Below, one piece after another: positions 19,075 to 47,874 of a stretch of 64,000 nucleotides of DNA. Source of the DNA: Nitrospirales bacterium (lineage in GTDB: Bacteria > Nitrospirota > Nitrospiria > Nitrospirales > UBA8639); contig CBDCWC010000003.1 of the NCBI GenBank assembly GCA_965223295.1, forward strand, positions 832,001-896,000, read 5' to 3'. A model generated the notes under the pieces. That model saw only the letters and a program-made list of their open reading frames with translations, had not been told where the DNA came from and searched no databases. A program made the translations under genes and the position numbers. The stretch's first letter is position 1. Each line of letters begins with the position of its first letter.

Positions 19075-20394
19075 ATGCGTGAGGATTTAGTTATCATTGG
19101 AGGCGGCTTGGCCGGCTCCGAAGCTGCGTGGCACGCCGCAAACTTAGGTGCAAAGGTGACCCTCTATGAAATGCGCCCGAAAACTGAAACCGCCGCTCAT
19201 AAGACCGAACATCTTGCGGAAATCGTTTGTTCCAATTCGCTAGGATCCAATGATCCGCTCAGTGCACCTGGCATCCTCAAACAAGAAATGAGACAGCTTG
19301 GGTCTCTCATCATTAAGGTCGCTGATGATGTCGCGGTCCCCGCCGGGGCAGCCTTAGCCGTTGACCGAGAACAATTTGCTCAAAAAATTACACAGGCTCT
19401 GACAGAACATCCCAATGTGCGAATCCTACGAGAAGAAATTCATGACATTCCTGAAGACGCCGTATGTATCATCGCAACAGGCCCTCTCACTTCCCCCAAA
19501 CTCTCTGAAGCCATTACCCAGCTCACACGGTCCAAAAATCTCTACTTCTTTGATGCCATTTCCCCCATCGTGGATACCGACTCATTGAATATGAACAAAA
19601 TTTTCCGTGCTTCCCGCTATGATAAAGGCACGGCCGATTACCTCAACTGCCCGATGGACGAAGAACGTTATAATCAATTCTATGATGCCCTCACCCAAGC
19701 CGAACGCGTCCAACCCAAAGCCTTTGAAAATATTCCATACTTTGAGGGCTGTCTTCCTATTGAAGTCATGGCGGATCGAGGTCGAAAAACGTTGGCCTTC
19801 GGCCCTCTCAAGCCAGTTGGGCTAATCGACCCCAAAACCGGGACACAACCCTATGCCGTGTTACAATTACGAGCAGAGAATCATCATGGATCCTGTTATA
19901 ACCTTGTGGGCTTCCAAACCAAACTGACGTATCCTGAACAGCGACGTGTGTTTCGCATGATTCCAGGGCTGGAGGAAGCCGAATTCCTTCGCTGCGGCAG
20001 CATCCACCGAAATACTTTTATTAATGTCCCCATTCTCCTGAATAAGACATTGCAATTAAAGAAACATCCGAACATTTTATTTGCCGGGCAATTAGTTGGC
20101 GTCGAAGGCTACGTGGAAGCTGCTGCGAGTGGAGGTCTTGCTGGGCTCAATGCAGCTCGAATGTTATCAGAGCAGAAACTCTTCACACCTCCGCCAACCA
20201 CCGCTCATGGAGCTCTTCTTGAATACATCACAACCTGTGAGCCCAAACATTTCCAACCCATCAATACCAATTTTGGCCTGTTTCCACCACTTGATACACC
20301 AATTCGAGAAAAACAGAAAAAACGGCAGGCCATTCAAGAACGGGCGCTGTCGGATTTTCAATCTTGGACCACACAATCCGGACTTTCAACATGA
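19075..20394 (+). CDS. trmFO: tRNA (uracil-54)-methyltransferase, FAD/folate-dependent
   Basis: GGGLAGSEAA, EMRP, VCSNSLG, FFDAISPI, YFEGCLPIE, AGQLVGVEGY motifs. Confidence 0.96.
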   Translation: MREDLVIIGGGLAGSEAAWHAANLGAKVTLYEMRPKTETAAHKTEHLAEIVCSNSLGSNDPLSAPGILKQEMRQLGSLIIKVADDVAVPAGAALAVDREQFAQKITQALTEHPNVRILREEIHDIPEDAVCIIATGPLTSPKLSEAITQLTRSKNLYFFDAISPIVDTDSLNMNKIFRASRYDKGTADYLNCPMDEERYNQFYDALTQAERVQPKAFENIPYFEGCLPIEVMADRGRKTLAFGPLKPVGLIDPKTGTQPYAVLQLRAENHHGSCYNLVGFQTKLTYPEQRRVFRMIPGLEEAEFLRCGSIHRNTFINVPILLNKTLQLKKHPNILFAGQLVGVEGYVEAAASGGLAGLNAARMLSEQKLFTPPPTTAHGALLEYITTCEPKHFQPINTNFGLFPPLDTPIREKQKKRQAIQERALSDFQSWTTQSGLST

Positions 20395-21368
20395 ATGACG
20401 CAATCCAAGATTTTCTCCTCCATTTACAATTAGAACGTGGCGTGTCGACAGATACGCATCATAGTTACCAGTCTGATCTTCAACAGTTCTTGGGACATCT
20501 CCAAGCGCAGTACTTTCGGGACAACGTAGCCCCGCAACCTAAGGATATTGATATATTCCATATCAGATCCTTCCTAAAACATTTGAGCGACCAGGGCTTA
20601 GCCAAAACATCGCTGGCTCGCAAGCTGGCCTGCCTGAAAAGTTTTTTTCGATTCTTGGTAGAGGAAGGCCAGATTAAACAGAATCCAGCCGCAGCTGTCC
20701 GCTCCCCTCGTTTGGGTACACGCTTGCCTACGGTGTTGACAAAAGACGAAGCCACCACGTTATTAGATAGCCCTCCCGCAGCGACGTGGATTGAGGCCAG
20801 AAATCATGCAATTTTGGAAACTCTTTATTCCAGTGGGGCACGAGTTTCAGAGTTGGTCGGTCTAAACTGGGATCATGTAGACCTTGACGCCCAACTCATT
20901 CGATTACGGGGAAAAGGCAAAAAAGAACGCAGGGTCCCAATAGGAGGCGTGGCCATAGAGGCCCTCCTCCACTATCAGCAACTCTTGCCTGCTGTCACTA
21001 AATCCACACGGAAGAACGTGCAGCACGGGCATTCCTCCTCTTCAAGGTCGCAACCTCTATTTTTAAACACACGAGGAGGCCGCTTAACAACACGAAGCAT
21101 TGAACGCATGGTCAAGCAACAATCTAGCACCCGATTTTCTCAGTCGGTTACCCCTCATACGCTACGCCATTCGTTCGCCACTCACTTACTCGATGAGGGC
21201 GCCGATTTACGAGCAATCCAAGAATTACTCGGGCATGCCTCATTAGCCACCACACAAAAATATACACATGTGGCGACGGATCAACTGATGGCCGTGTATG
21301 ATCAAGCTCACCCGAGATCAGGGTCCTCTCTTAACACATCATCAGAAGGAGATCACCGCAAATCATGA
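20391..21368 (+). CDS. xerC: Tyrosine recombinase XerC
   Basis: [35 protein letters not shown]; conserved position between trmFO and hslV. Confidence 0.92.
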
Positions 21369-33428: not shown

Positions 33429-33677
33429 AGGGGCAGTCTAGACATTCACCCTGTCGCATTACAAGATCTAACCAAAAACCTGGTGCCACATCCGAATGTC
33501 TCTGTATAAGGAAGAACGAGAAGTCAAAGCGGCATGAACTCGACCTTGAAAGTGATGTAGCCCACAAAGAGGCTATTTTGGTGTGAGGATAAAAAGAAAC
33601 CTGTTTTTAGAAGATAGGGAATCGGGAAATGAGGGAATGACAAGAAAGTCACATGATTTTTTCGACCCTTCTTTCTT

Positions 33678-33865
33678 GGTCTGTTGAATAATTCAATTTC
33701 AAGTTACGTAAAGGCCTTCAGAGCATGGTGACTTCAATGCGACGGGAATGGTCAAAAAAGTCCGCCCAGCAAGGCCACAGCCCTTTATGCACGCGGAGCG
33801 TACTGGTTCCACGTGAGCACGGAACAATGGCGAGAACGCCGCTGGCGGCTTTTTTCAACATTCCC
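33678..33865 (-). mobile_element. ~190-bp MITE-like repeat, copy 2 (inverted)
   Basis: Reverse complement matches 12531-12721 (...GTGAGCACGG...GAGAACGCCGCTGGCGGCTTTTTTCAACA). Confidence 0.78.
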
Positions 33866-33973
33866 TTTCTCAAACCTGGAATAGCTCACAATTCCTGTCA
33901 CCTGTTGAACGCATAGCCAATTCCACACCTTTGCTTTTCATCTCAGAATGGAGAAAACATCGCTCAACTCTGG

Positions 33974-34720
33974 CTATCGCGTCGGTACGTCAAACACGAG
34001 GAATTCACAGCCATGAGAAATATCCAGGGAGAATTCTCGACTGTCTCGTATCCCAAAACCATCGCCTTTTACCAATTGCTGGCCCAAGACGGTCATTTGC
34101 CCATCGATGATATACACAAAGGCATGGTTTTCCGCTAACTTGGGTTGGTAGCTCAGGCTCTTGGAGTCTTGAAAATTTCCATAACTGATATACGCGTCCT
34201 GCTGGACAACCAAACTTCCGTCAACGCCATCAGGGGAAAGGACGCATACGAGATGGGACTCGTAGTCGCTTGGCTCAAAGTGTTTGCGATTAAAATTTGG
34301 TGGGAGATTTTTCGCTCGCGGTATCAACCATATTTGCAGCGCGCGCATCGTTTCGGTTTCGGAATTATTTTCTTCGTTATGAACAATGCCGCTTCCCGCT
34401 GTAATAATTTGTATACCTTTGGCTTGGAGGCATCCGTTATGAGACGCGTCATTGGGGTCAATGTGGTTAACTTCCCCTGACACCATGAAGGTCACGACCT
34501 CAACATCGTGATGCGGATGAAATCCGAATCCTTTTGCGGCGGGCTGCAAAACGCCATCATCAATGGTGATCAGTGCGCCGAATCTCTGTCGTTCTGGCGC
34601 GAAATTCGGCTTAAAACAGAGGTGTGCCTGCATAAACCCAAAATCTTCAAATTTCCTGGTGTTTGCTGGCAAAAAAATCGTATCGCGTTTCAAGTCAATG
34701 CTCCTGTTAATGGCCACCAC
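33974..34720 (-). CDS. Pirin-family protein (YhhW-like)
   Basis: GFGFHPHHDVEVVT, TAGSGIVHNE, LQIW motifs. Confidence 0.88.
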   Translation of the reverse strand: MVAINRSIDLKRDTIFLPANTRKFEDFGFMQAHLCFKPNFAPERQRFGALITIDDGVLQPAAKGFGFHPHHDVEVVTFMVSGEVNHIDPNDASHNGCLQAKGIQIITAGSGIVHNEENNSETETMRALQIWLIPRAKNLPPNFNRKHFEPSDYESHLVCVLSPDGVDGSLVVQQDAYISYGNFQDSKSLSYQPKLAENHAFVYIIDGQMTVLGQQLVKGDGFGIRDSREFSLDISHGCEFLVFDVPTR

Positions 34721-35294
34721 CTAATATTTCTTCGCCCAGAATTTTCATGAGCTTGCCACCATCTTCACTCGCCCAATTGACCGCGAGGTCGGCAATGATG
34801 GCACTCGTCGTCGTCAATTCCACGCCAGAACGTTCCATACGACGAAAGGCCATTTCATCGGTCAACGTGGTCGGAGAACCGGAGGCATCAACAACACCGT
34901 AGACTTCAAATCCCTCATCAGCGGCACTGATCGCTGGCGGGTCCAGACAGACGTCGGTGGTCACGCCGGCCATGAGCAATTGCTTACGGCCCGTGTCGCG
35001 GCACGCCCGCGCAAATCGCTCATCATCCCAACAATTGACGACACCGGGTCGTTTAATCCGAGCGCCAAACGCGTCGGGTGCGATCGTTTCAAGAGCAGGC
35101 ATTAACGGCCCCTGCATGTGATCTTCCTGACTGCTGGTGAAAACCAGCGGCATGTTCAGAGCCACCGCCACCTTCGCTAATGCTCGTGTGTTGGCTTCCA
35201 CAATTGATTTTTCGATTGATCCGATCCAGTTCATGGTGCCAATTTGATGATCGATCAGAATCATTGCCGCATCACTCGCTTTGGCCTTTTTCAT
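34707..35294 (-). CDS. Isochorismatase-family hydrolase (YcaC-like)
   Basis: IDHQ, GPLMP, NCWDD, TGRKQL, AGVTTDVC. Confidence 0.88.
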   Translation of the reverse strand: MKKAKASDAAMILIDHQIGTMNWIGSIEKSIVEANTRALAKVAVALNMPLVFTSSQEDHMQGPLMPALETIAPDAFGARIKRPGVVNCWDDERFARACRDTGRKQLLMAGVTTDVCLDPPAISAADEGFEVYGVVDASGSPTTLTDEMAFRRMERSGVELTTTSAIIADLAVNWASEDGGKLMKILGEEILGGGH

Positions 35295-35381
35295 AGTCCT
35301 ATCTCCTCAAGAGGTTGATGTGTAAAATAGGATTGTTACATAGGGTTGAACACATTCGTAAGTAGGTACATTATGGGAACC

Positions 35382-35738
35382 ATGAAAAAAACAGCGAGAG
35401 CCCACATCCGATCAAAATTGCCTTCGGCAACAAACTGTCCGGTCGAAACCACTATTGAGGTGATTGGAGGGCGTTGGAAGTGCCCGATCATTGATCAGTT
35501 ACTGAAAGGGACGAAACGTTTTCAAGAGCTGCGGCGAGCGATTCCAGACGCCTCGCAACGAATGCTCACGAAACATCTGCGTGAGCTTGAACACGATGGG
35601 CTCATTTATAGGGAAGTCTATACCGAAGTACCACCACGGACAGAGTACTCGCTCACCCCGATGGGTCGATCGCTAAAACCGGTATTGAGGGCGATGGCAG
35701 AGTGGTCAATGACGAATATGGGCGCAAAGCTGGAGTGA
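35382..35738 (+). CDS. HxlR-family transcriptional regulator
   Basis: CPVETTIEVIGGRWK, LRELEHDGL, VPPRTEYSLT; divergent from the hydrolase/pirin pair. Confidence 0.9.
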   Translation: MKKTARAHIRSKLPSATNCPVETTIEVIGGRWKCPIIDQLLKGTKRFQELRRAIPDASQRMLTKHLRELEHDGLIYREVYTEVPPRTEYSLTPMGRSLKPVLRAMAEWSMTNMGAKLE

Positions 35739-35784
35739 GCGTCCAGCCAGAGCGCCTGTTGACCGACGGTAATTTTTTCGGCTA

Positions 35785-35814
35785 TTCGTCACAGTTCGGC
35801 CAGAAGCAGCCATT
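35785..35814 (+). repeat. Island junction palindrome A (degenerate left arm)
   Basis: TTCGTCACAGTTCGGCCAGAAGCAGCCATT; core and right arm resemble sites B and C. Confidence 0.45.
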
Positions 35815-35980
35815 GCTCTTGTTTGATACGAAGGCAAAACAGACAATCATTGTTCACAACAGAAACTGCCGTAAAGCAGTCCCGGTTGCTTGTACTGAGT
35901 ATGAGACATTATTTTCCGCAGAATTGTCGTCATATCTATGTCAGTACTTACTTTGATAAAGTCAGTAACCATCGTTCTTC

Positions 35981-36924
35981 CTACTCGTGTGTCAGATTTT
36001 TGCATACCTGCTCAATATGTCGATAATCGGTTCCACAACAGCCTCCCAATACGGTTATATGTGGGGCGAGGGATTTTAAGTTGGCAAGCTCTGCACCAAA
36101 TTGTGTTGGTTTCCCTCATCAAGGGTTTCTGATTCAATCAATTCCGCATGACTAGGGCAGGAGGCATTGCCCCGCAATCCTTTGACACGATTTAACCAAC
36201 TATCTTGTGCGTTAAAAAGATACGAAAAATGTGTGGGGTGCGCACAGTTAATCATATAGTAAGCCGGACCACGATCAGTAGCCTGGTCGACGGCATGTAT
36301 TGCCTGTTCTAGTGATTCACCTGTTGGAAGCTTGCCGTTGGTTTCGACGGTAAATGAAATGCACACGGGTAAGCCATATTCTTGAGCGGCTAGGGTAATG
36401 CCAATGGCCTCTTCAACGTAATTCAGCGTGAGGGCAGCTATCATGTCCGCATTAGATTTGGCGAACGTAGCGATTTGTGCTGAATGATAGTCTTGTGCTT
36501 TAGCCACCGTCATTTTTTGTGAGGGAATGTAGCCATCACCACGTGGGCCGAGGCAGCCACTGATCACAATCGGTGTATCCCCATTTTCATATCCCTCTCG
36601 AATATCTTCAATCAGTTTGACGGATTGAAGATTAAAGCTCTCGAGGACTTGTGGGGAATCGCCAATTTTATAGCTCCAATCTTTATTTGCCCTCCAGGTT
36701 GGTGTCTCAAGGATAAGCCCTAGTTGATAGCTCTGAGCCATTTCAGCGTAAGTTTTGTAGTAGTTAGATAGGGTTTTATAACCCTGTTGATGGCGCAATA
36801 AATCATAAGCAGCGAGTTCGGGTAAATCTAGTTGGTGGTGAAAAACTAGATCGGTTTTCATTCCGCCATCGGTAATACAGATTTTGTCATCTAGCTGCGG
36901 TAATTGTTGTGTGGTGATTCCCAT
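35981..36924 (-). pseudogene. Homocysteine S-methyltransferase family, frameshifted near 36108
   Basis: TPTWRAN, GPRGDGY, INCAHP; the missing C-terminus PTQFGAELANL...LGGCCGTDYRHI...HE* lies in another frame. Confidence 0.88.
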
Positions 36925-37143
36925 ATCATTGTCCTTCTTTTGAGTAGATGGTGTGCATAGAGTGAATAATTCAATGTGATCAGATTAGTCTTAGGACTGA
37001 ATTTTTCTAGTGAACTGCCGTTACTTTTTTTCATATTTTTAATAAACTACACTAAAGACGAGGGGATAGAGACTTGATAAGTAGGCACGTAAACCACTAA
37101 GGACCTCGGTGCTGCTAGAAACTTGACTCGGGGTAAAGTAAAT

Positions 37144-37752
37144 ATGGCCACAAAAGGTGAAGCGACCAAAGATCGATTACTGGATATAGCCGAGCGGCAT
37201 ATCCTTCAGAATGGTTTCGCTGCCACTTCAATAGATAATTTGATTAAGGAAGCCGGTATCACAAAGGGAGGGTTCTTCTATCACTTTAATGGGAAAAATG
37301 CCCTGGCCTATGCGTTGATGCAACGATACCGAGAGCGAGACGCGTTTTTATTCAGTGGCCTGTTCAAACGTGCCGAAGAACTGACCGACGATCCACTCCA
37401 GCAAATACTGGTGTTTGTCAAATTACTGGCTGAAATGATGGAGAATCTTGAGGGGCTTCAACCCCGGCTGCCTTGTGGTCTCGTTTACTACGAAAGTCAT
37501 CAAGTGAACGACGAAGTTCACAAGATCACAGCAGACAGTGTGATGGATTGGCGAAGATTATTCAGAGAGCAACTTGATAAAATCAATGCAAGATATACAG
37601 CAAATAGCGACACCACCAGTGATGATCTAGCCGATATGCTTTCAACGATCATCGAAGGTGGTATCGTCGTCTCGAGAGCGCTCAATGATCCTTCGATTTT
37701 GATAAAACAGCTACTGGAATACCGATCATTTGTTAACTTGTTGTATTCCTAA
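37144..37752 (+). CDS. TetR-family regulator (contains a locally frameshifted segment)
   Basis: GFAATSID...GITKGGFFYHF HTH; divergent from the methyltransferase. Confidence 0.88.
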   Translation: MATKGEATKDRLLDIAERHILQNGFAATSIDNLIKEAGITKGGFFYHFNGKNALAYALMQRYRERDAFLFSGLFKRAEELTDDPLQQILVFVKLLAEMMENLEGLQPRLPCGLVYYESHQVNDEVHKITADSVMDWRRLFREQLDKINARYTANSDTTSDDLADMLSTIIEGGIVVSRALNDPSILIKQLLEYRSFVNLLYS

Positions 37753-37865
37753 TATCAGCAATGAGGCACGCCGTTGTTCAGCCAGTAATCGCGAATGATC
37801 TACTTGAATGAGCCGTTATGCTTTCAGGTCTTGTTCCCTTATTTCTTTGCACACAGAATTCACCC

Positions 37866-37893
37866 TGGCCGCTTTGGGTCGAATAGCGAACAT
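37866..37893 (+). repeat. Island junction palindrome B
   Basis: TGGCCGCT-TTGGGTCGAAT-AGCGAACAT, 50 bp upstream of the recombinase start. Confidence 0.65.
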
Positions 37894-37942
37894 CTCCCAG
37901 CTCGATCCTAATCATTCCCCACTTAAAAAGGGGGCTATAATT

Positions 37943-38568
37943 ATGATTAGTTTCTCTCAAGCCGCACCAGCGTCAGCGCCTTGAAATAAAGGCCAACTCA
38001 TTGGGCAAAAACCGACCTTAAAACTCCGGGAGATCAGGGCAATCCGCATCAGACTGCAGCTCAAGAACGATCCACGAGAATTGGCCATGTTTAACTTGGC
38101 CATCGACGGTAAGTTACGCAGTTGTGATCTCGTGCACCTCAGGGTGCGAGATGTCTTTCATGGCCATAGGATTGCTCCGCGAGCCATGGTGCTACAGCAG
38201 AAAACCCACCAGCCGGTTCAATTTGAGATCACGGAACAAACCAGAGAGGCTCTCACCAACTGGTTGGGCTCCCATCATTATCGACCAGACGACTATCTGT
38301 TTCCGAGTCGCATCAATCGTTCGCATCATCTTTTCACCCGACAATAGGCCCGAATCGTTCACAAGTGGGTCGAAATGATGGGCCTTGATTCCGCACTCTA
38401 TGGCACACATTCATTGCGAAGGACAAAAGCCACGCTCATCTACCGGCGAACGAAAAATCTTCGAGCGGTGCAGCTCTTATTAGGCCACACCAAACTAGAA
38501 AGTACCCTTCGTTATCTGGGGATAGAAGTGGAGATGCACCGGAAATGGCGGAACAGACCGAGGTTTGA
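37943..38568 (+). pseudogene. Small catalytic-domain-only tyrosine recombinase (PWNKG-type), inactivated
   Basis: P*NKGQLIGQKPTLK...LAMFNLAIDGKLRSCD...QQKT...TRQ*ARIV...GTHSLRRTKA...LLGHTKLESTLRYLG; stops at 37982 and 38345 plus a frameshift near the 3' end. Confidence 0.88.
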
Positions 38569-38614
38569 ACAAAAGGATGACTAGCGGCCTTGGATACAAG
38601 GTCGCTATCCGGCC

Positions 38615-40279
38615 CAGGCTGTGTAAAAACTTATCTCCCCCTCCCATTGCCACGCGCTAGGAGGCGCGTCAGCCCATCTCCTCTTGAGTGGTGCGTTGAG
38701 ACGAGCGTTTTTGCTTTGTGCCACTACGAGCCACCTGATGCATTACCCGTGGCCCTCATGTGCCAATTTTTGTGTGATAGGAGGGTGGCTCTCACATCTG
38801 GAATGCCTGAAGGAGCGGGGTCACACCGAATATCGCCAGCACCCGTTTGAAGTTGTACGCCAAGACATGCAAGCTCATCTCGGTGCGCACCTGCTTGAGG
38901 GTTTTGGTTTGAAAGTGGGTATATCCTATCCACGCTTTTAAGGTGCCAAATGGATGCTCGACCGTTTGTCGTCGCGTGCGCATCCGCTCCGGTTCTCGAT
39001 CCAGGCGGGCTTCTGGGGCTTCCAGTACGGCTTCATGTTCCCAGCGTGTTATTCGCCGGTACTGACTGGTCGTGCATTGCGACTTGATAGGGCAGGTCGG
39101 ACAGTGGGATGACCAGTATTTGTGGAGCGTTAAGCCTTTCTCCTCTGTCTCGAATCGCCAGACCAAGCGTTTACCAGCCGGGCATGCATATTCATTTTCG
39201 TCTGCGTGGTACATGAAGTCGCGTTTGCTGAACAAGCCTTTTTTGGTGCTTCCCGATGTTTGAGGTTTGGGGAGATACGTCGTGATCTGGGACTGCTCAC
39301 AGGCCAGGAGTTCTTCACTGGTGAGGTATCCTCGATCAGCGACCACCTCAAGCGTTTCCGCTCCGATGGCCTCCTTCGCGTGTTGTGCCATGGGGTGCAA
39401 CTGGTGACGATCGCTGCCGGCATTGGTCACCTCATGCGCCACAATCATATGGTGCTCCACATCCACGGCCGTTTGGACGTTATACCCGACGATGCCGGTG
39501 CCCCGCGCTTTCATTGATCGAGCATCCGGGTCCGTTAATGAAATCTGTTGATCTGGCGCGTGATGTAGCTGGACTTCGAGTTTCTTGAGGCGGGCCATTT
39601 CTGTCTTCAGGGCCGTGATCTTGTCCTCGAGCCGTTGAGTCTTTTCATTGGCCACAGTCGCTTCTTGGCGATCCGCACTGGCGATCTGGCTCAGATACCG
39701 GGCAATGCTTTCATCAATCTGTTGCAACCGACATTTCATCTTGGCGGCGGTGAAGTTCTTGTCTCGGTTATTGACGGCCTTGAACTTACTGCCGTCAATG
39801 GCGACGAAGACGTCGGCAAACAGATTGAGCTTCTTGCACAGCAGAATGAACTCGCGACAGACCAAGCGGATGGCGGCGCCATTGTTCTTACGAAAATCAG
39901 CGATGGTCCTAAAGTCTGGGGCTAAGCGGCCAGTGAGCCACATGAGCTCCACGTTGCGGTGGGCTTCGCGTTCCAGGCAACGACTGGACTGCACTCGGTT
40001 GAGATACCCGTAGACATAGAGCTTGAGCAGGGTCCTTGGATGGTAGCCTGGGCGACCCGTGTCTTTCGAATGGGTTTCGAAGCCCAGCCCGGAGAGATCG
40101 AGGTCGTCAATGAAGACATCGATCACTCGAACGGCGTTGTCTTCAGCAATGTACTCATCCAATCGTTCGGGAAACAAGGTCGCTTGATGCCGATCGGTCC
40201 CTTGAACAAATCCGCTCATTCATGACACCTCCGTAGGAAAACCCTATTATACTCTCCCACCGAGTTTTCACACAGTCTG
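38615..40279 (-). mobile_element. IS1182-family insertion sequence
   Basis: TIRs CAGGCTGTGTAAAAACT / CAGACTGTGTGAAAACT (15/17); GGCC on both flanks; single transposase gene. Confidence 0.92.
38792..40219 (-). CDS. IS1182-family transposase
   Basis: GRPGYHP, SSRCLERE, PDFRTIADFR, IDGSKF, TDPDARSM, GYNVQ, ADRGY, VEHPFGTLK. Confidence 0.93.
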   Translation of the reverse strand: MSGFVQGTDRHQATLFPERLDEYIAEDNAVRVIDVFIDDLDLSGLGFETHSKDTGRPGYHPRTLLKLYVYGYLNRVQSSRCLEREAHRNVELMWLTGRLAPDFRTIADFRKNNGAAIRLVCREFILLCKKLNLFADVFVAIDGSKFKAVNNRDKNFTAAKMKCRLQQIDESIARYLSQIASADRQEATVANEKTQRLEDKITALKTEMARLKKLEVQLHHAPDQQISLTDPDARSMKARGTGIVGYNVQTAVDVEHHMIVAHEVTNAGSDRHQLHPMAQHAKEAIGAETLEVVADRGYLTSEELLACEQSQITTYLPKPQTSGSTKKGLFSKRDFMYHADENEYACPAGKRLVWRFETEEKGLTLHKYWSSHCPTCPIKSQCTTSQYRRITRWEHEAVLEAPEARLDREPERMRTRRQTVEHPFGTLKAWIGYTHFQTKTLKQVRTEMSLHVLAYNFKRVLAIFGVTPLLQAFQM

Positions 40280-40347
40280 GGCCAATAGCGGACATGTTAA
40301 TTTGTGCTTCTTACTGACACTGTCGGTATGGGGGAATTAGTTGTGGC

Positions 40348-41348
40348 TCATTCTGCCCTTGTGCTGGAATGTAGGAGTGGCTTGGAAGATCGATATTCAT
40401 AAGGGGCTTTCCCTGTGTGTCGTCGAATGAGTTGACGAAGTGCCGCTGGATGTGAATAACCAACCTGATTGGAGATTATTTCAAAGTTAAGATTGGTTGT
40501 CTGAAGAAGTTGGATTGCACGTTCCACGCGAATACGTTGGATAAACTTATTGCAAGATATTCCAGTTGCCTCAATCATGCGCCGAGCCAACGTTCTTGGA
40601 CTCACACCAACTCCCCTCGCTATTTGAGCTACCGTTATTGGCTGTTCTACATGCTGTCTTATCCAAATTTCTGCTCTTCGCGTCTCGTCGTTACTTCTGG
40701 CCAAAAAATGAGAAACCCCAAAGCGTGCTTGAGAGTTTCGCCCGTCAAGAAGCAAGAACTTTGCGACCGCATCACTTAGGTTGGGGCCAGATAAAAGTCC
40801 TAATAACGTTAGAGCCAAGTCCATATGGGCCATGGCCGCGCCCCCACAAATAAGCGAGTCTTCCTGTGTCACCATGGTCTCAAGCTGGAGTCGAACATTG
40901 GGGTATTGATCTCGAAAATCTTTTGCCAACCACCAAGACGTGGTTGCTAAGCGATGATCTAGAAGACCAGTTTCGGCCAGAATAAATGTAGAAGTGCAGG
41001 AGGCAGCAATGCTGCTCCCGTTTTCATATTGGTGCAGTAGCCACCTAATAGCAGCGCGCGTATTTTTTCCCCAAGAGAAGCATTCATCGATTGCCCATCA
41101 AATAACTCCAAGCCCGGTATAACAATAACGTCTGCGAGCAATCCGTCCTGAATCGTTATGTCTGCTAAAATCTGTTGGCCACTACCAGTCGTAATGCGTT
41201 TTTTCCCAACACAAATTATTTGTAGAGTAAATGGCAAAAACCCGGAGTCTCCTTTAGCCATTTGGGCACCCATGCGAAGAACATCATGGGTTAAGGAAAA
41301 AGCCGAATCGAACACTTGATCTAAGACTAAAATCCCAACAGTTTTCAC
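40348..41348 (-). pseudogene. GlxA-family (DJ-1 + AraC) regulator, frameshifted near 41065
   Basis: After the GGGGAAAAAA run another frame reads AAIRWLLHQYENGSSIAASCTSTFILAETGLLDHRLATTSWWLA and continues into the AraC HTH ORF. Confidence 0.85.
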
Positions 41349-41607
41349 AAAAAACAAACTACCTAACCTCATGGGAAATAACAATAACTCCTCGAGACTT
41401 TACGGTGCGTTTACTCCAATATTTTGGCTAATTGACAATATTAATCGGATTTTGTCCATTTTGAATTCTTGCAAAAGGAGCCTCGTTTTCTAATAATAAT
41501 TTCAAGAGGTTTACGTAAGATTGGCAACAGAAATTCTGTTCTACCCATGAACATATTTGAAAGAAATTTTAATCGTCTTAGCCATTTTATTTGTCCTGCC
41601 ATTTTGA

Positions 41608-41955
41608 ATGTTTGAAATAAATAAATTCGTTTACAAAGACCTCTCAATTGAACTGTCTCTGATCGGACGTCTTGATCGGAATGCTAAACAAGATTTTCAA
41701 AAGGAGATACAAAAATCTCAATGCATGAGACCCCAGAAAATTTATATCAACCTTGTCGAAGTTTCTTCCATTGATTGCGTGGGCGTGGGTATGTTGGCAT
41801 CAGCGCACACTAGCTCAAGGCAACTTCAGATTGCCATTGTACTTATCGTGACTAAGGGACATGTTCTGCAAACCCTAGAGATAGCTGGAATTAAGAGAAT
41901 ATTGCCTGTGATTTACGGCGATCATCACAATAACTTCCCCTTGAACCTACTTTGA
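41608..41955 (+). CDS. STAS-domain protein (anti-sigma antagonist-like)
   Basis: LIGRLD, INLVEVSSIDCVGVGML, LEIAGI; Cys sits at the usual phospho-Ser position. Confidence 0.75.
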   Translation: MFEINKFVYKDLSIELSLIGRLDRNAKQDFQKEIQKSQCMRPQKIYINLVEVSSIDCVGVGMLASAHTSSRQLQIAIVLIVTKGHVLQTLEIAGIKRILPVIYGDHHNNFPLNLL

Positions 41956-42133
41956 ATTTTTATCTTAATCCTCTCTCTTTCATATGAACTCAACGAATGG
42001 ACTATCGTTTTGGGACGTATGTCTTTTGAATTTTCTGACCGCATAGATAGCGAATTATGTAATCCCTGTTGATCAATAAATGGCCAATTCGATGGGATTT
42101 GAGCCATGTGTTGGCTTTTTACGGAAACTTTTG

Positions 42134-42304
42134 ATGACTGAAGAGGATGCTGTGAAGTTAAGAGAAAAATGGAAAAAGATCTATAAGGGCAGGACGTGTC
42201 AACATAGGCAATTGGTAAATAGTTTAAAATCAAATGAAGGAAAATCGCTAGATGTTTGGATTTGTATGGAATGTGGAAAAATTCTAGAAAACTCTCAATC
42301 ATGA
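42134..42304 (+). CDS. Small putative Zn-binding protein
   Basis: MTEEDAVKLREKWK...CQH...CMECG. Confidence 0.55.
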   Translation: MTEEDAVKLREKWKKIYKGRTCQHRQLVNSLKSNEGKSLDVWICMECGKILENSQS

Positions 42305-42380
42305 ATTTCAGTGATCATAGTCAAAAGCTAAGACGGAGGAATTTGGTGAATAAACTAATTAAGCTGGATCAAGCTTTCCT

Positions 42381-42408
42381 AATGTCCACTGTGGGTCGAG
42401 AGCCGGCC
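42381..42408 (+). repeat. Island junction palindrome D
   Basis: AATGTCCACT-GTGGGTCGAG-AGCCGGCC. Confidence 0.6.
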
Positions 42409-42611
42409 AAAAGCGAGCACAATAGAATGAACTGTTGAGCGTTTTAAAAGACCTGTTAGATTACTTATTGGGAGTACCATGTAACCGAATCCCATATTCG
42501 GTTACATTTTATACAAAAAGAACGAGCCTCTTATCCGTGTCGTACAAAAGGCCCGGTTCCAAGAAAATAGTTTAGTGTGTGGGTTGATTCTCTGTCGCCC
42601 TGATGCTCCGG

Positions 42612-43070
42612 TTATTTTTCTACTAAATGGAGATTCTCGATAATTCCCCCATCAAACCGAATAAACTGGTCTTTGGAGCCAAACCTAAAGATGCCGGAGG
42701 AATACATCACGTTATTCGTAAAATTGAAAATTAAGGTGGTATAGTCAGGATGTGACTCTTCTAACCAACTGACCATATACAGCCTTTCACCAATTTTTCG
42801 AGATTGATAGGGCAGATCTTGATTCTTATGCCCTGTTCTTGGTCCCACAATCCATTCATATTTCAGCATTCCATCATAGAGCTCTAGATGAATTCCTCCC
42901 CCATTTTGATAATAATAGTTCATGGAGGTCCCATCTAATAAATGTTCGGCTTGCCTTGCCTCCGCCTCTTGCCTGGCTTCTGCTAACGACGTATCTCCTG
43001 GTGTTTCCTCCGCGAACACGTGACTCGTACATGCAAATGTAATCAAACTGGCGACAATTATTGTTTTCAT
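42612..43070 (-). CDS. Secreted MoaF/phenolic-acid-decarboxylase-like beta-barrel protein
   Basis: GGAG RBS, signal peptide, YYYQNG...GP...LYMVSWLE...TLIFNF. Confidence 0.7.
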   Translation of the reverse strand: MKTIIVASLITFACTSHVFAEETPGDTSLAEARQEAEARQAEHLLDGTSMNYYYQNGGGIHLELYDGMLKYEWIVGPRTGHKNQDLPYQSRKIGERLYMVSWLEESHPDYTTLIFNFTNNVMYSSGIFRFGSKDQFIRFDGGIIENLHLVEK

Positions 43071-43282
43071 ACGACACTCCTAGTTGGGCTTGTAGTGAAT
43101 GCAGGAAAAACGGTCTCTCTAAATATTGTAACCTTGGGCAGAAGGCCCGAGTTCTTTGCGGCTAAGCGACGCTCTGAATCATGCATCCGCCGCAAGCCCC
43201 CAACGTTGTCTCAGGAAAAAATCTCTGGATTGCGGATAAATAGTTTACATGATGTGGGATGTAGTAACGCACTGTCGTGAAA

Positions 43283-44059
43283 TCAGAATTTTCCACTGTT
43301 GTTCCAAGTCTCTTTTGGACCGATTTTCTCCTGCACGTCCCAGTGCTCAACAAACCTGCCGTCTTTCAACCGAAAGATATCAAAGAAGGCCCAGTCTTCA
43401 GCACTTACTAGCGTATGGCTCAAGGCCACCACAAAATTGCCCTGGCCGATCAAGTGGTGGACTTTGAGGTATCTCGCACCCTTGTCGCGAACCTCTTGTA
43501 GATGCTTATTAATCCCCTCCAGCCCATCCCCAATTTCGGGGTTGTGTTGGTGGCATTGTTCGCTAGAGATGTAATCCGTCACCTTGTCAAACTTGCCACC
43601 CATCAGCACGTCATCGAAAAAGGCCCGGACGATCGCCTTGTTCCCATCGGTCTTATCGAGGTCTTCAACCTCGGTCGGCCCATCAACCATCGTGCGGCCT
43701 GAAACTGTCTCCTCAACGTAAGGTGCGAGCACATCCCAATGTTCGATCATCCGGTCTTCATCATCAGTATCAAACAGATCGGCGGTGACCCATTTGGTTT
43801 CGCCCTTATTCAAGCTCTGATAGACATGGACGAAAACTTTTCGGCCATCTTCGATGGCACGGACCACCTGAATGTCACGCACGGGGTTGCGCGCGAGAAA
43901 TGGTCGAAAGAATTCCATGAACCCTGCCTTCCCATCAGCGACACCTGTGGAATGTTGGGTGTAGCGGTCGCCTATGTATTTCTCAAGCGCCTCGCGCAGG
44001 TTCCCGTCTCGAATGCCTTCGAGGTACAGGCCGATCGCGTGTTCCTTTTTGCGACTCAT
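43283..44059 (-). CDS. Tandem SnoaL-like (NTF2-fold) protein
   Basis: Two repeats: YTQHS...DG...IEHWDV and HQHNP...DG...VEHWDV. Confidence 0.88.
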   Translation of the reverse strand: MSRKKEHAIGLYLEGIRDGNLREALEKYIGDRYTQHSTGVADGKAGFMEFFRPFLARNPVRDIQVVRAIEDGRKVFVHVYQSLNKGETKWVTADLFDTDDEDRMIEHWDVLAPYVEETVSGRTMVDGPTEVEDLDKTDGNKAIVRAFFDDVLMGGKFDKVTDYISSEQCHQHNPEIGDGLEGINKHLQEVRDKGARYLKVHHLIGQGNFVVALSHTLVSAEDWAFFDIFRLKDGRFVEHWDVQEKIGPKETWNNSGKF

Positions 44060-44134
44060 TGGGTCTCCCTCCTCTCCTTCGTCTGCTAGGTGAACAAGTT
44101 GGGATCTCTCACTCGCAGTGCTAAGATAAAAGGC

Positions 44135-44551
44135 ATGAAAACCAATAGCAATGATAGTTCCGGATCCGGCATTACTCCTTTGGAAATCATTGAGTACGGC
44201 GCTGAATTAACCCGCAGGTTTTCAGAGAAGTATGGCGGACAAACGACCATCAACCAGTTACGAGTCATTCACTCGGTCTTGACCTGCCTTTATCGGAACG
44301 GCCCTGACTACTCGTGTACCGTGAAGTGGATACATGAGGACACCGGCATACCTTTGAGCACCATAAGCCGTGCCCTGGCTGGTCTTGTCGAGACAGGTAG
44401 GATAGCCGAAGAGTCGAATCCAGATGATGGCCGTAGCCGGCTCATAAGACTCGGCCCAAAGTCGAAAAGGACTCCTGCGGACCTCAGATTTCTCGGTGAG
44501 TGGATACTAGATCGGCAGAAAAATATCCCGCCGACAAAACGGCCACCCTAA
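44135..44551 (+). CDS. MarR-like winged-helix regulator
   Basis: TGIPLSTISRALAGL...NPDDGRSRLIRL. Confidence 0.75.
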   Translation: MKTNSNDSSGSGITPLEIIEYGAELTRRFSEKYGGQTTINQLRVIHSVLTCLYRNGPDYSCTVKWIHEDTGIPLSTISRALAGLVETGRIAEESNPDDGRSRLIRLGPKSKRTPADLRFLGEWILDRQKNIPPTKRPP

Positions 44552-44568
44552 CCTGATAGTCGAGGTGG

Positions 44569-44592
44569 GCGACGGCTCTGGATCGCAACCTA
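44569..44592 (+). repeat. Island junction palindrome F (degenerate)
   Basis: GCGACGGCT-CTGGATCGC-AACCTA between convergent genes. Confidence 0.4.
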
Positions 44593-44607
44593 CTGAAATC
44601 GGAGTCT

Positions 44608-45135
44608 TCACGGAATCCACAACGTCGGTTGAAGCCACTGTCGGGGCACAGATAGTCTTCCTGCACACGGCGTGATACTTTTTCCCAAATTTTGTGACTG
44701 CCATGCGCCCTCCCATTCAACTGACAAGGGAAATGGCGGCCTCACTAAAGACTCTGGAAGAAACCCGAGACGGCCGTAAAAAGCAGGATCCCCAAGCACA
44801 TAGACCCAATTTACGTCCTTGTCTTCTAGCCGTCGTAAGCCTGCGCGCACGATCGCACTCCCGATACTCTGCCTTTGCCACGCTGGCGCGACAGCGAGTG
44901 GCCCGAGTAGCGCAGCACTGCCATTAGTCCCATCCACGCCACATTTCGTAAAGATCACGTGCCCTATAATCTGCTTGTCAATCGTTCCGACGAGCGATAA
45001 GGCAACGGCTGCCTCGCTCAAAAGATTTCGCACAAGGGGAAGCAGATTTTCATCAGGAAACGCGTTCGGATAAAGTGACTCAATCGCCACCGAATCGCCC
45101 TGTCTGCTTTCACGGATTTCAAGCTTTTCCGACAT
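44608..45135 (-). CDS. GNAT acetyltransferase (YhbS-like)
   Basis: LLGPLAVAPAWQRQSIGSAIV, VLGDPAFYGRLGF. Confidence 0.88.
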   Translation of the reverse strand: MSEKLEIRESRQGDSVAIESLYPNAFPDENLLPLVRNLLSEAAVALSLVGTIDKQIIGHVIFTKCGVDGTNGSAALLGPLAVAPAWQRQSIGSAIVRAGLRRLEDKDVNWVYVLGDPAFYGRLGFLPESLVRPPFPLSVEWEGAWQSQNLGKSITPCAGRLSVPRQWLQPTLWIP

Positions 45136-45183
45136 TGCGGTATCCGAATACCGTCGATTGTTCATGCAGAGCACCAACCGTCA

Positions 45184-45212
45184 TAGGGCACTATGGACCA
45201 ATTATCGTCCTT
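45184..45212 (-). repeat. Island junction palindrome G (inverted)
   Basis: Minus strand AAGGACGATAATTGGTCCATAGTGCCCTA aligns without gaps (17/27) to reconstituted site C. Confidence 0.5.
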
Positions 45213-45215
45213 TGC

Positions 45216-45599
45216 TCACTCGTACTTCGAGACTTCGATTAGATTCAGATCCGGATCTCTAAAATAGAGTGATGTTGTTTTCCCAACCGCTCCGGTTCGT
45301 GCTACAGGCCCATCTATAATTGCGACCCCACATAGCTCAAGATGTTTTTTAGCTTCCTCTATAGGCGTTTTTAAAATAAAACATAGATCAGCACTACCCG
45401 CCCCTACCTTCCCAGCTTTTGGCTCAAATTCTTTGCCAAGTTGATGTACGTTAATTTTCTGATTCCCAAATGATAAGGCTATGCGGCCTTCACCAAATGA
45501 AACTCGCTTCATCCCTAAAACCATTTCGTAAAAAGCTACGGTCTTTTCAATATCAGCAACCGTTAGGACTAAATGATCCAAGCGATCAATTTCTATCAT
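45216..45599 (-). CDS. VOC/glyoxalase family protein (YaeR/GLOD5-like)
   Basis: LDHLVLTV, QKINVH, GSADLC, SLYFRDPDLNLIE. Confidence 0.92.
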   Translation of the reverse strand: MIEIDRLDHLVLTVADIEKTVAFYEMVLGMKRVSFGEGRIALSFGNQKINVHQLGKEFEPKAGKVGAGSADLCFILKTPIEEAKKHLELCGVAIIDGPVARTGAVGKTTSLYFRDPDLNLIEVSKYE

Positions 45600-45683
45600 G
45601 GATAGATCCTCTGAATAATAAAGTTCATATTATGCTTGAGGTCATGAAGATTCGGGAAGACTATCACAAACCAAAACCATCTT

Positions 45684-45713
45684 TAGTCCGCTTTTGGATC
45701 AGGTTGGGACCAT
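45684..45713 (+). repeat. Island junction palindrome H
   Basis: TAGTCCGCTT-TTGGATCAGGTT-GGGACCAT. Confidence 0.55.
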
Positions 45714-45844
45714 CGAAGCCCTAGAATTCATTTCCATTGGCGAACAGATATTCTCGGCGAGTTCGCAGTCATTGAGTTGTGCTAAAAATAATGAGAACAT
45801 GCTTAGAAAGTTCGGCCGTCTATCTTAATAAGGAGTATGGTGAA

Positions 45845-46210
45845 ATGATCAAATTTGTGATGTGTTTGCGCCGGCATCCAGGTATGACTCGTGAGCAGTT
45901 TCAAGATTATTGGACGAACAAACATGGCCCTTTCTTCATGAAAAATGCTGACGCGATGCGAGCAAAAAAATATGTGCAATCTCTTACGATCGATACCCCT
46001 ATAAACGAAGGATTGAGAAATTCTAGAGGCATGTTGCCAGAATATGATGGTGTCGCAGAGGTGTGGTTTGAATCAGAAAACGATCTCATGGAGGCAATGA
46101 GTTCACCGGAGGGGCAAAAACTAGGTGCCGCACTACTAGAAGATGAGGGGAATTTTATTGATCACACTCAATCTTCGGCATTCATTGTTAAGGAGCATGA
46201 ACTTAAGTAG
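45845..46210 (+). CDS. EthD-domain protein
   Basis: AAGGAG RBS; RRHPGMTREQFQDYW...H, YDGVAEVWF, DEGNFID. Confidence 0.88.
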   Translation: MIKFVMCLRRHPGMTREQFQDYWTNKHGPFFMKNADAMRAKKYVQSLTIDTPINEGLRNSRGMLPEYDGVAEVWFESENDLMEAMSSPEGQKLGAALLEDEGNFIDHTQSSAFIVKEHELK

Positions 46211-46349
46211 TTGAAGACGGTTCCCAAAGTTTCACTATGAGCACTAGTTGCCATGGAATTGAGCGTCTAGTGGGACGTTAGCAGAAGAATAGGCCAGGCC
46301 GTAGATCCTCACTTTTCTCTCCCTCTAAATTGCTACTAGGAGCTACCCC

Positions 46350-46580
46350 GCCCCCCAGCAGCATTATCTCTAGATTTCCATGCTCACGTACATAGGGTAG
46401 GCCCCGCGGATAAAACTGTCTGTGGCCTTACTGGACCTGGCTTCGCCGAAGCGGCTTCGCGCAGGCGAGCCGACCCTTCAATCAACTCAGGGCAGGCTTT
46501 TTCGAACTGACCTGCTACTTCTGACTGCAACTCCCTTCCTGGCCCAATATGTCCTCCTTAACCTCTGATTCAACAACTCC
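46350..46580 (+). mobile_element. Degenerate MITE copy with an internal ~60-bp REP-like insertion
   Basis: TGCTCACGTAC...TGTGGCCTTACTGGAC[insert]CTTTTTCGAAC...CTTCCTGGCCCAATATG...ATTCAACAACTCC aligns to copy 1; left end is decayed. Confidence 0.6.
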
Positions 46581-46590
46581 ATTATGCATA

Positions 46591-46626
46591 TTGACAGCAT
46601 ACTGTCTTTATGACATATTACTTTCA
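46591..46626 (+). promoter_or_regulatory. Promoter with overlapping MarR operator
   Basis: TTGACA-17 bp-CATATT overlapped by the inverted repeat GACAG-CATA-CTGTC. Confidence 0.65.
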
Positions 46627-46628
46627 TA

Positions 46629-47111
46629 ATGGCACAGACCAAAGGAGTACATTTCGGACGACACCATACACCGGGCGGAGCAGCCTTTACCGAACTTCTC
46701 CTCGAAACCTTCAAACTGAATGGATTACTACTCCTCGAAGGTGATCGCCTGGTTCATCATCTGAATTTGACGAGTGCGCGGTGGCAAGTGATGGGAGCCA
46801 TTGATCTGGCACTGGTTCCGCTGACAGTGGCTCAGATCGCTCGCAACATGGGCTTACAGCGCCAAAGTGTTCAACGGCTTGCCAACGTTCTTGCCTCTGA
46901 AGGGCTTGTTCAGTATGTCGAGAATCCCCATCATCGACGAGCGAAACTTGTGCAACTGACCCAACGTGGCCACACAACCTTGAACAAGGTCAAACAGATA
47001 CAAGTCGAATGGGCAAATCAGATTTCGGCGGGAATACCAAAACGTGACTTGCGGCAAGCCGTAGACGTGCTGCGAACACTCAGCAAGCGGTTGAAAGGAA
47101 AGCGGTCATGA
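46629..47111 (+). CDS. MarR-family regulator
   Basis: LTSARWQVMG, TVAQIARNMGLQRQSVQR, NPHHRRAKLV. Confidence 0.9.
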   Translation: MAQTKGVHFGRHHTPGGAAFTELLLETFKLNGLLLLEGDRLVHHLNLTSARWQVMGAIDLALVPLTVAQIARNMGLQRQSVQRLANVLASEGLVQYVENPHHRRAKLVQLTQRGHTTLNKVKQIQVEWANQISAGIPKRDLRQAVDVLRTLSKRLKGKRS

Positions 47112-47557
47112 AAACTGGAATGATCATTCAACGCGTTCACGCCATCGCGGGTATCCTAGGCTTTCTCACTATTCTGACGTTCTGGATCTCCACAGCATGG
47201 TCAGAATTATTTGGGACTCAAGAAATGATTGCTACCGTCAAGCGCAATATCCTGTGGGGCATGCTGATCCTCGTTCCAGCGATGGCGGCCGTGGGGGGAA
47301 GTGGGTTCCGTCTCATGAGAAAGGAAAATGATCCTCTTATTTCGGCAAAAAAACGTCGCATGATGATCATTGGTCCAAACGGGCTATTCGTACTCCTTCC
47401 CGCAGCCATCTACCTCAATGCCCTAGCCTCTCAGGGCATGTTCGGGACTTCTTTCTACGCAGTACAAACCATCGAGTTGATTGCGGGCGCGGGCAATCTC
47501 ACCTTGATAGGACTCAATATGCGTGACGGTCTTCGAGCGACCGGGCGCCTCAATTAG
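47108..47557 (+). CDS. Four-TM membrane protein, function unknown
   Basis: Four hydrophobic helices; ATGA overlap with marR; LNMRDG C-terminal motif. Confidence 0.8.
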   Translation: MKTGMIIQRVHAIAGILGFLTILTFWISTAWSELFGTQEMIATVKRNILWGMLILVPAMAAVGGSGFRLMRKENDPLISAKKRRMMIIGPNGLFVLLPAAIYLNALASQGMFGTSFYAVQTIELIAGAGNLTLIGLNMRDGLRATGRLN

Positions 47558-47874
47558 GGGTACCAGTATCCTATGCATCTAGCGAGAACATACACATCTC
47601 TCAAACAGAATTGCTATCTACACAGAGGCGCTGGAGCAACTTTGCGGAAATGGATACGGACCTGACAATATTCAATACCAATCAGAGTAAGCCAACTGTC
47701 GAAAATTGAGTTTGAGGCCAGTTGCCTTCCCATGCTGGGCTAGGAGTGCTACTATTTTCTCTCGACTACAAGTCATTGCAACAAGATAAAGAGTGTCTGA
47801 GTATCCTAATTACCCTGATAAGAAAATTCGCTGCTCCATTCCTTTTTCTACCCCTTCGGGAAAACTCAACCAAC

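Follow-up and report, generated by a model that had tools for sequence, protein, structure and literature searches.

In a pdif site, which resembles chromosomal dif, a 6-bp centre separates a XerC arm from a XerD arm. Modules bounded by such sites on Acinetobacter plasmids are the closest analogue of the locus described here, an island of small accessory genes that fills 33.9 to 47.7 kb of a 64,000-nucleotide stretch from a Nitrospirales bacterium (contig CBDCWC010000003.1, positions 832,001 to 896,000; this whole stretch is referred to as the window) and that includes the remains of a tyrosine recombinase of the 208-residue type. As far as the excerpts of the pdif reports go (PMC7399989, PMC6449649, PMC13141974, PMC10132070), dyads of about 25–28 bp bound discrete accessory modules, neighbouring modules share a site, the sites that flank a module are inverted, and two classes of module, known as C and D modules, are told apart by the arm that points inward (PMC13141974). 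All of these features have a counterpart here, with 'outer-arm' and 'inner-arm' modules as the two classes, and in both cases, again by these excerpts, the way in which single modules move is unsettled. The differences lie in the enzyme and in the site. The sites at this locus go with a self-encoded recombinase of 208 residues that lacks a core-binding domain, apparently not with the host's XerC and XerD, their two arms have a single core around a 7-bp G+C-rich spacer, and they occur on chromosomes as well as plasmids and in many phyla. We propose that the island is probably a decayed remnant of a module system for site-specific recombination with its own 208-residue recombinase, preserved as a fossil in the host genome.

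Several other described systems share individual features with this one. Integrons also combine a tyrosine recombinase with arrays of accessory genes, and the arrays without a recombinase that we report below are paralleled by their CALINs (attC clusters without an integrase); the system here is without the IntI-specific domain, attI and attC, and its units carry regulators, lie in either orientation and have sites in common. The FimB/FimE invertases are similar in their length of about 200 residues, in having no separate core-binding domain and in their short inverted repeats, and the model NF007371 gives a weak match to the recombinase (E 1e-4 to 2e-3, 17–22 bits against a cut-off of 222). 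The Fim enzymes, however, are encoded outside a fixed promoter switch, whereas here the gene lies inside the repeats, forms a mobile unit with them and is accompanied by arrays of sites. Insertion sequences (ISs) and miniature inverted-repeat transposable elements (MITEs) come to mind as well, given a unit of about 770 bp that has terminal inverted repeats and a single gene, along with short derivatives that have none, but its product is a tyrosine recombinase where an IS would have a DDE or HUH transposase, and no target duplication was seen. Repetitive extragenic palindromes (REPs) number hundreds per genome and go with a HUH RAYT gene, in contrast to the 0–10 clustered sites per genome found here in 31 genus genomes. 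Site-specific recombination that exchanges variable genes at short repeats, in this case inverted repeats on either side of the Z/fun locus of P2-like coliphages, is, going by its title, the subject of a 2004 paper by Nilsson, Karlsson and Haggard-Ljungquist (cited in PMC9122126 and PMC6379469). The recombinase-and-site system itself is widespread and apparently undescribed: no published description of it was found, a provisional result since subscription journals were mostly outside the search, and a literature search with site strings of 10–12 bases gave nothing relevant among the matches listed.

The recombinase gene of the island is a pseudogene (37943..38568, + strand), both halves of which match the Pfam domain Phage_integrase. 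It is 81% identical to P0026, its homologue in the genus genome G009, and carries one TGA in place of the W codon of the motif PWNKG and one TAG in place of a conserved Y codon, and its reading frame shifts ahead of the last ~12 codons, so that the catalytic residues are still encoded but interrupted. As this is the sole copy in the host genome, the system is inactive there. The original prediction had described a recombinase of about 208 codons, comprising a catalytic domain only and bracketed by two palindromes (sites B and C below); the catalytic domain, which proves to be Xer-like and to have no core-binding domain before it, and the bracketing are borne out, whereas the two stop codons and the frameshift of the host copy had not been mentioned.

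The family belongs to the tyrosine recombinase superfamily. Across 28 aligned homologues there is no variation in the catalytic residues R, K, HxxR, H and Y of a Phage_integrase domain (PF00589), and the motif PWNKG, whose W codon has become TGA in the pseudogene, is likewise invariant. Residues ~41–199 align to the catalytic domains of the XerA, XerC and XerD profiles and of solved Xer structures, the alignment running from residue ~41 of 208, which corresponds to Xer profile positions 109–126 and to residues 120–130 of the solved chains, onward. Only some 40 residues thus take the place of the Xer-type core-binding domain of about 100 residues, and the N-terminal core-binding domain of simple Xer proteins is absent. 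No NCBIfam model reaches its cut-off with family members, and an AlphaFold2 model built on a shallow alignment (28 sequences, 78–89% identical to the first) had a mean pLDDT of 45.7 and was not usable.

The family is large, with 5,607 database proteins at E<=1e-3, and its relatives are encoded in at least 563 stretches when one genome per species is taken. Nearly all of the best 120 proteins are 208 residues long, and these are 72–89% identical. The hosts include Pseudomonas, Burkholderiales, Halomonas, methanotrophs and Nitrospirales-labelled metagenome-assembled genomes, among others; some members are plasmid-borne, for example on pMOL30 and on a P. aeruginosa megaplasmid, and many are found on contigs of about 1 kb. 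Their annotation goes no further than 'tyrosine-type recombinase/integrase'. A second family of recombinases of about 200 residues, 38–40% identical to P0026, was observed in the genus genomes G018, G044, G012, G016 and G015.

The association of the recombinase with a site was counted over 80 loci from other species. Two inverted copies of a sequence of ~27–30 bp flank the gene, one about 70–80 nt before the start codon and the other about 20–60 nt after the stop codon. By a strict first criterion there were 31 left and 38 right copies; 25 loci had both, and 44 of the 80 had one or both. A weight matrix applied at 13 bits raised these figures to 47 of 79 on the left and 43 of 78 on the right, with 36 loci carrying both and 54 of 80 carrying one or both, a count that is partly circular in that the matrix derives from 69 of the same copies. 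The enrichment of the motif near homologues of the recombinase, which the original prediction had proposed as a check, is therefore present, and at a fixed place relative to the gene. Alignment of the 69 copies resolves the site into a dyad of ~25 bp in which an outer and an inner arm, with a CGCT core in common, stand on either side of a 7-bp spacer whose centre is GGCC or GGTC. Together with its inverted end sites the gene makes up a unit of 750–770 bp that holds no other gene and occurs in unrelated contexts. Closely related Pseudomonas units have constant inner arms and interiors and different outer arms, and no direct repeat or target duplication was found outside the ends of the unit, where the outermost bases instead prolong the inverted symmetry. 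Some repeats also stand as pairs only 35 bp apart, enclosing nothing. In the stretch from the left repeat to the start codon (37894–37942 in the window, and likewise in loci L009–L040), most members of the family have a short stem-loop of which the ribosome-binding site is a part and which may serve in translation control.

Sites are also frequent in the surroundings of the unit. The 3-kb flanks of the recombinase in other species (384 kb in total) contain 29 sites of at least 17 bits, distributed over 23 of the 80 loci, against none in shuffled flanks; at 15 bits the numbers are 39 and 2. The 25 segments bounded by sites are 0.5–2.9 kb long, and only two of them hold a further copy of the recombinase, the other 23 carrying cargo. 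A Pfam scan of 41 of their 45 open reading frames (ORFs), the four shortest being left out, found no family for 25; those with a family include a tautomerase, CMD, two GNATs, DarT, an AbiEii-like ATPase, cpYpsA, LysR, LysE, DJ-1 and a histidine kinase.

For the scoring of sites in the host genome, which has 3.78 Mb and 47% G+C, both the weight matrix and an nhmmer profile were made from the 69 repeat copies of other species only, as a guard against circularity; a fuzzy consensus of fixed length, derived from the sites of the window itself, was noisy and circular and was dropped in favour of this model. Matrix ranks refer to the 7.57 million positions of the genome. The highest rank goes to site B (37863..37893, + strand; 28.2 bits, nhmmer E=7e-4), which is the left inverted end of the recombinase unit and lies ~70–80 nt ahead of the start codon, as it does in other species. 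The second rank goes to site A (35785..35815, − strand; 23.5 bits, E=0.035), a full dyad whose 'inner' arm, of the type found in the recombinase unit, faces hxlR and whose 'outer' arm faces the methyltransferase gene. Site C is split by an insertion sequence into an inner arm with half of the spacer (38584..38614, − strand; E=0.75 for this half alone) and the second copy of a 4-bp duplication with the outer arm (40280..40296, − strand; E=15 for this half alone). When the insertion (38615–40279) and one copy of the duplication are removed by script, the rejoined site C scores 35.3 bits and exceeds every position of the genome; its position after the stop codon matches that in other species, and the small hairpin that usually precedes the inner arm at this end is in place.

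The distribution of matches over the genome points the same way. In comparison with a Markov null there were 3 matches against 0 at 20 bits or more, 8 against 2 at 14 bits or more and 26 against 25 at 10 bits or more. A weight-matrix scan of the kind called for by the original prediction thus has an outcome in which A, B and the rejoined C are at the top of the genome. By nhmmer the order is B (7e-4), C2:29998 (0.03), A (0.035), C2:875177 (0.07) and the inner half of C (0.75), which places three of the genome's five best matches within 3 kb. An even spread over the genome in the manner of a REP, named beforehand as an outcome that would speak against the idea, was not found, and since the genome shows no excess of arm pairs (243, compared with 218 in the null) the motif is not REP-like. 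Regarding the two top sites outside the island, G000:C2:29998-30019 has an AraC regulator on one side and a DUF4198 gene on the other, with SnoaL and LigB genes adjoining, and G000:C2:875177-875198 lies amid small ORFs without Pfam families; neither has a recombinase nearby.

The remaining palindromes that had been proposed fare less well. Site D (42380..42422) consists of two facing arms of the outer type about 16 bp apart, which we call a 'double site'; its overlapping matches of 11.7 bits (+) and 11.8 bits (−) are within the top 28 positions of the genome, where ~0.1 would be expected in the island, and its nhmmer E-value is 12. Site H (45682..45715, + strand) is weak, with an exact 12-base outer arm followed by a degenerate spacer and a second arm with indels (gapped score 4.3, rank ~500). 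Site G (45182..45213), directly upstream of the start codon of the GNAT gene, is also weak (gapped score 2.9, rank ~800), and site F (44567..44592), directly past the stop codon of the same gene, is very weak (gapped score −0.7, rank ~2,900); H, G and F are each at chance level for an island of 13.8 kb. The candidate at 43127 ranks ~5,100, and site I and the candidate at 47704 are indistinguishable from random sequence. None of H, F, G, I, 43127 and 47704 has an nhmmer match at E<=50. The proposed sites therefore divide into three that are solid (A, B and C), one that is borderline (D), three that are weak (H, G and F) and three that are not sites. The strict palindrome, in the form in which it was first given, has no match in the window, and single-stranded folding of seven sites gave none that beats its shuffles (z −0.54 to +1.16), for which reason a hairpin or attC-like reading of single sites was dropped.

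Comparison with relatives shows that blocks of homology end inside A, B and C, as would be anticipated if module borders fall in the sites. In G016, the closest relative at ~91% identity, homology is lost inside A and resumes at the VOC gene beside G, and a break inside A is also seen in G024 and G006. The block with the methyltransferase and TetR genes recurs at 75–82% identity in G024, G006, G004, G009 and G014. It ends at A and just before B in G024 and G006, and it is flanked by site-like sequences in G024, G006, G004 and G014, with one weak site nearby in G009; in G006 and G024 these flanking sites have no adjoining recombinase. The alignment with G006 runs from the spacer of A to past the spacer of B, and where the window has B, recombinase and C, G006 has two facing outer arms in the layout of site D. 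The recombinase block, in turn, ends at B and C in G009, G020, G015 and G004. At the other junctions, the VOC homology with G016 and with the gene's own paralogue begins at site G, a site-like sequence is present at the G position of the GNAT copies in G006, G019 and G020 and missing from two copies in G009, and site F has positional parallels only, at the GNAT copies of three relatives, with the two G009 copies again without it. Site H is kept in G016 and missing upstream of four other ethD copies. The division of the island into ten modules by about ten sites is thus not supported: statistically solid sites are limited to A, B and C, with D and H weak and F and G having no more than positional parallels in relatives, and some strain differences, such as that at the pirin gene, fall where there is no detectable site.

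Across the genus, the unit of G009 measures 770 bp from outer repeat edge to outer repeat edge and is the only part of its locus that is shared within the genus (50 genomes searched). Matches to all or most of this unit occur in G046, G000 (the host genome), G057, G020 and G015, a partial one in G062 and remnants in G004, in differing contexts, and a search for the empty site with the flanks of the unit found them in none of the 50 genomes. Intact close homologues of the recombinase are encoded in G009, G046, G020 and G015, and those of G000 and G004 are broken. Counts of sites at E<=0.1 range from 0 to 10 per genome over 31 genus genomes, and the sites are clustered: 7 of the 9 sites of G014 lie within 17.2 kb, all 10 sites of G041 are on two contigs, and 3 of the 6 sites of G009 lie within 2.6 kb, at the recombinase.

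The insertion in site C offers a separate line of evidence. The element (38615..40279, − strand) is 1,665 bp long with inverted ends of 16 bp, is flanked by a 4-bp target duplication and sits in the centre of the site; it encodes a DDE transposase of 475 amino acids (38792–40219, − strand) with DUF772, DDE_Tnp_1_6 and DDE_Tnp_1 domains. The IS family is single-copy in the host genome and multi-copy in several genus genomes. We inspected 21 insertions, namely the window copy, six in loci of G004, G014 and G024, one in Pseudomonas and 13 of 14 further copies (the fourteenth was excluded as only one of its ends was found); loci L096, L100, L093, L069 and L115–L128 are among them. For 20 of the 21, the insertion point is the 4-bp centre of a site of which one or both arms can be recognised, the remaining case being unclear, which argues that the site is an entity that the element recognises. 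Elements of the IS1202 family likewise target pdif sites, going into them or close beside them, according to an excerpt of PMC10132070. In the four public runs, all from one study, available as contigs and probably with the source sample among them, no contig spans site C without the element, and a joint at 38631>40258 was not counted as its shorter side has 23 letters and lies inside the IS ends.

A mechanism can be suggested for these observations. Two monomers would bind the two arms of a site, with strand exchange in the 7-bp spacer. The 'inner' arm would stay with the recombinase unit and the 'outer' arm with whatever adjoins it. As each arm is kept by its own side, neighbouring blocks share a site in the manner of a pdif array, and the inverted sites A(−), B(+) and C(−), with homology breakpoints in the spacer, conform to this. 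The window may be parsed as [..hxlR] A [methyltransferase-TetR] B [recombinase] C [AraC..orf125] D [MoaF..VOC] H [EthD..], where the orientations A(−), B(+), C(−), D(+/−) and H(+) would alternate perfectly, the last two junctions being weak. Recombination between inverted sites would give inversion, recombination between every second site, which are in direct orientation, would excise a pair of blocks with one site, and two crossovers between replicons would exchange a single block. In the host genome any activity would need enzyme supplied in trans. The analysis establishes three junctions of this kind and makes two others plausible, leaving the remainder of the array as proposed undemonstrated; the capture of cassettes, as originally suggested, is an inference. 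A wider proposal, which we offer tentatively and hold somewhat doubtful, is that the locus is one relic of a third, phylum-spanning system of gene-module exchange beside integrons and pdif, in which a minimal, self-encoded recombinase without a core-binding domain would act on the sites so that modules are inverted, excised in pairs or traded among chromosomes, plasmids and phages, and to which gene-less mini-derivatives, orphan arrays and a site-hunting IS would belong.

A number of observations weigh against the main reading, that of a decayed module system. Two inverted sites allow inversion only, and simple excision therefore does not account for the movement of a single block. No recombination product, whether circle, inversion or empty site, was seen, the runs with this DNA being available as contigs and coming from one study. 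Those contigs join 33509 to 34653, where the pirin gene is missing, with no detectable site, and in G016 the 28 kb of other DNA between hxlR and the VOC gene have only two weak sites. In the window D, H, G and F are not significant individually. Among the 80 loci of other species, 26 have no repeat by the matrix, perhaps as their sites may have diverged, and the alternation of site orientation (21 opposite, 11 same) is not significant (p=0.11). Finally, the arrays of G014 and G041 are orphans, with no close recombinase found in either genome by the query used, and therefore another enzyme may act on them or they may be relics.

These same observations can be read in other ways. A selfish mini-element could be all there is, an IS-like unit of 750–770 bp with terminal inverted repeats of ~30 bp, the other sites being its targets, MITE-like copies or solo ends and the blocks varying by homologous recombination or other mobile DNA. 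What recurs elsewhere is indeed the unit with both complete repeats; gene-less repeat pairs 35 bp apart and 'double sites' exist, the solid sites of the island are only A, B and C, and differences without a site are present. Such an element would, however, leave unexplained that site A lies 2 kb off the unit and at the breakpoints of three relatives, that the methyltransferase-TetR block of G006 and G024 is flanked by sites with no recombinase adjoining, that arrays of 9–10 sites with no close recombinase gene persist in G014 and G041 and that 23 of 25 site-bounded segments hold cargo and not recombinase remnants; we think this account rather unlikely. If instead the sites were substrates of the host's XerC and XerD, as in a true pdif-like system, the small recombinase would be accessory or competing. 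Its catalytic domain is Xer-like, the window has a xerC gene and the genome a second Xer-type gene, and arrays persist in genomes that lack the small recombinase. Sites at a fixed distance from the small recombinase gene, across phyla, are nevertheless the signature of an enzyme with its own site and argue for a dedicated enzyme. Both arms, moreover, have one CGCT core in place of two different Xer arms, and the G+C-rich spacer of 7 bp seems unlike that of dif; we consider this reading very unlikely.

Similarity by chance, terminators or a repeat of REP type with no part in recombination would fit the failure of single sites to fold better than shuffles and the 6 of 11 proposed sites that are at or near chance, and such an explanation would indeed hold where I, 43127 and 47704 are concerned. 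With A, B and C it is contradicted by their first places in the genome under a model from other species, and the unenriched arm pairs and the fixed place of the motif beside the recombinase in 54 of 80 loci speak against it too; as an account of the whole it is highly improbable. The inner arm loosely resembles the integron core site, and GNAT, VOC and EthD genes are typical small cassette cargo, as would befit a degenerate classical integron or a CALIN. Against this, none of the eight matches to the IntI models TIGR02249 and NF011946 in the host genome exceeds the cut-off (best 82.9 against 265 bits with TIGR02249), and the family members P0026 and P0001 score 27–33 bits with the IntI model. 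The dyads of ~25 bp are common to neighbours, occur in both orientations and fold no better than their shuffles, unlike attC sites, which are imperfect hairpins of 60–140 bp that end in RYYYAAC and GTTRRRY and are present once per cassette, all in direct orientation, and in place of promoterless single-gene cassettes transcribed from a single Pc promoter the modules have divergent pairs of enzyme and regulator of their own, on both strands and in both orientations. A degenerate integron is thus scarcely credible, and the original view that this is not a classical integron, having neither IntI nor attC-type hairpins, stands.

The setting and contents of the island are in keeping with earlier descriptions. 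The window is part of a 1.94-Mb contig, and as a housekeeping cluster of trmFO, xerC and hslV sits 13 kb upstream the island is chromosomal. The host xerC (20364–21368) scores 333.5 bits against a TIGR02224 cut-off of 335.15 and exceeds the cut-off of NF001399, and a second Xer-type gene is present elsewhere in the genome. A Pfam scan of 23 ORFs agrees with the gene content listed before. In order, the island holds pirin, isochorismatase and HxlR genes, next to site A; the homocysteine S-methyltransferase (36076–36924, −) and divergent TetR (37123–37752, +) genes of the module at 35816..37862 (G+C 0.436); the Phage_integrase fragments; and the IS transposase. The candidate module between C and D (40297..42379, G+C 0.412) comprises an AraC-type regulator, orf141, a STAS protein and orf125, and had no match in a relative among the 150 matches listed, 134 more existing. 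A MoaF-like gene follows, then a double SnoaL with MarR, then GNAT, VOC and EthD genes, then a second MarR with orf149 and lastly an outer-membrane efflux protein (OEP). G+C content differs between neighbouring blocks, as had been claimed, ranging from 0.41 to 0.54 around a window average of 0.474.

Parts of the island vary in the sampled population. The pirin block and the block with the GNAT and VOC genes are variable, since contigs of related strains in the runs X1, X2 and X4 join across them; in the second case the joint is at 44555>45790, the GNAT and VOC genes being missing or replaced, and only the weak sites F and H are nearby. The VOC gene has a paralogue in the host genome (G000:C2:370370-370776) with 82.5% protein and 86% DNA identity, homology hardly extending beyond the gene. 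Just outside the island, a MITE-like repeat of 198 bp (33677–33874) has several copies in the genome and well over 100 matches in genus genomes, and is missing exactly from contigs of one related strain (joint 33676>33875). A G+C-rich repeat near 46380–46500 is possibly related to it, by eye only.

Taken by itself the window is a modest matter, with a dead copy of the recombinase and three to five junctions that can be assigned. If modules truly move by means of these sites, the latter would account, for annotation, for some mosaic islands and assembly breaks, a very common recombinase that has no name of its own would be an engine of cassette exchange, and with it there would be a new mechanism by which bacteria trade genes for detoxification, GNATs, and genes of toxin–antitoxin and defence type; its very small recombinase and short site would also be a candidate tool.

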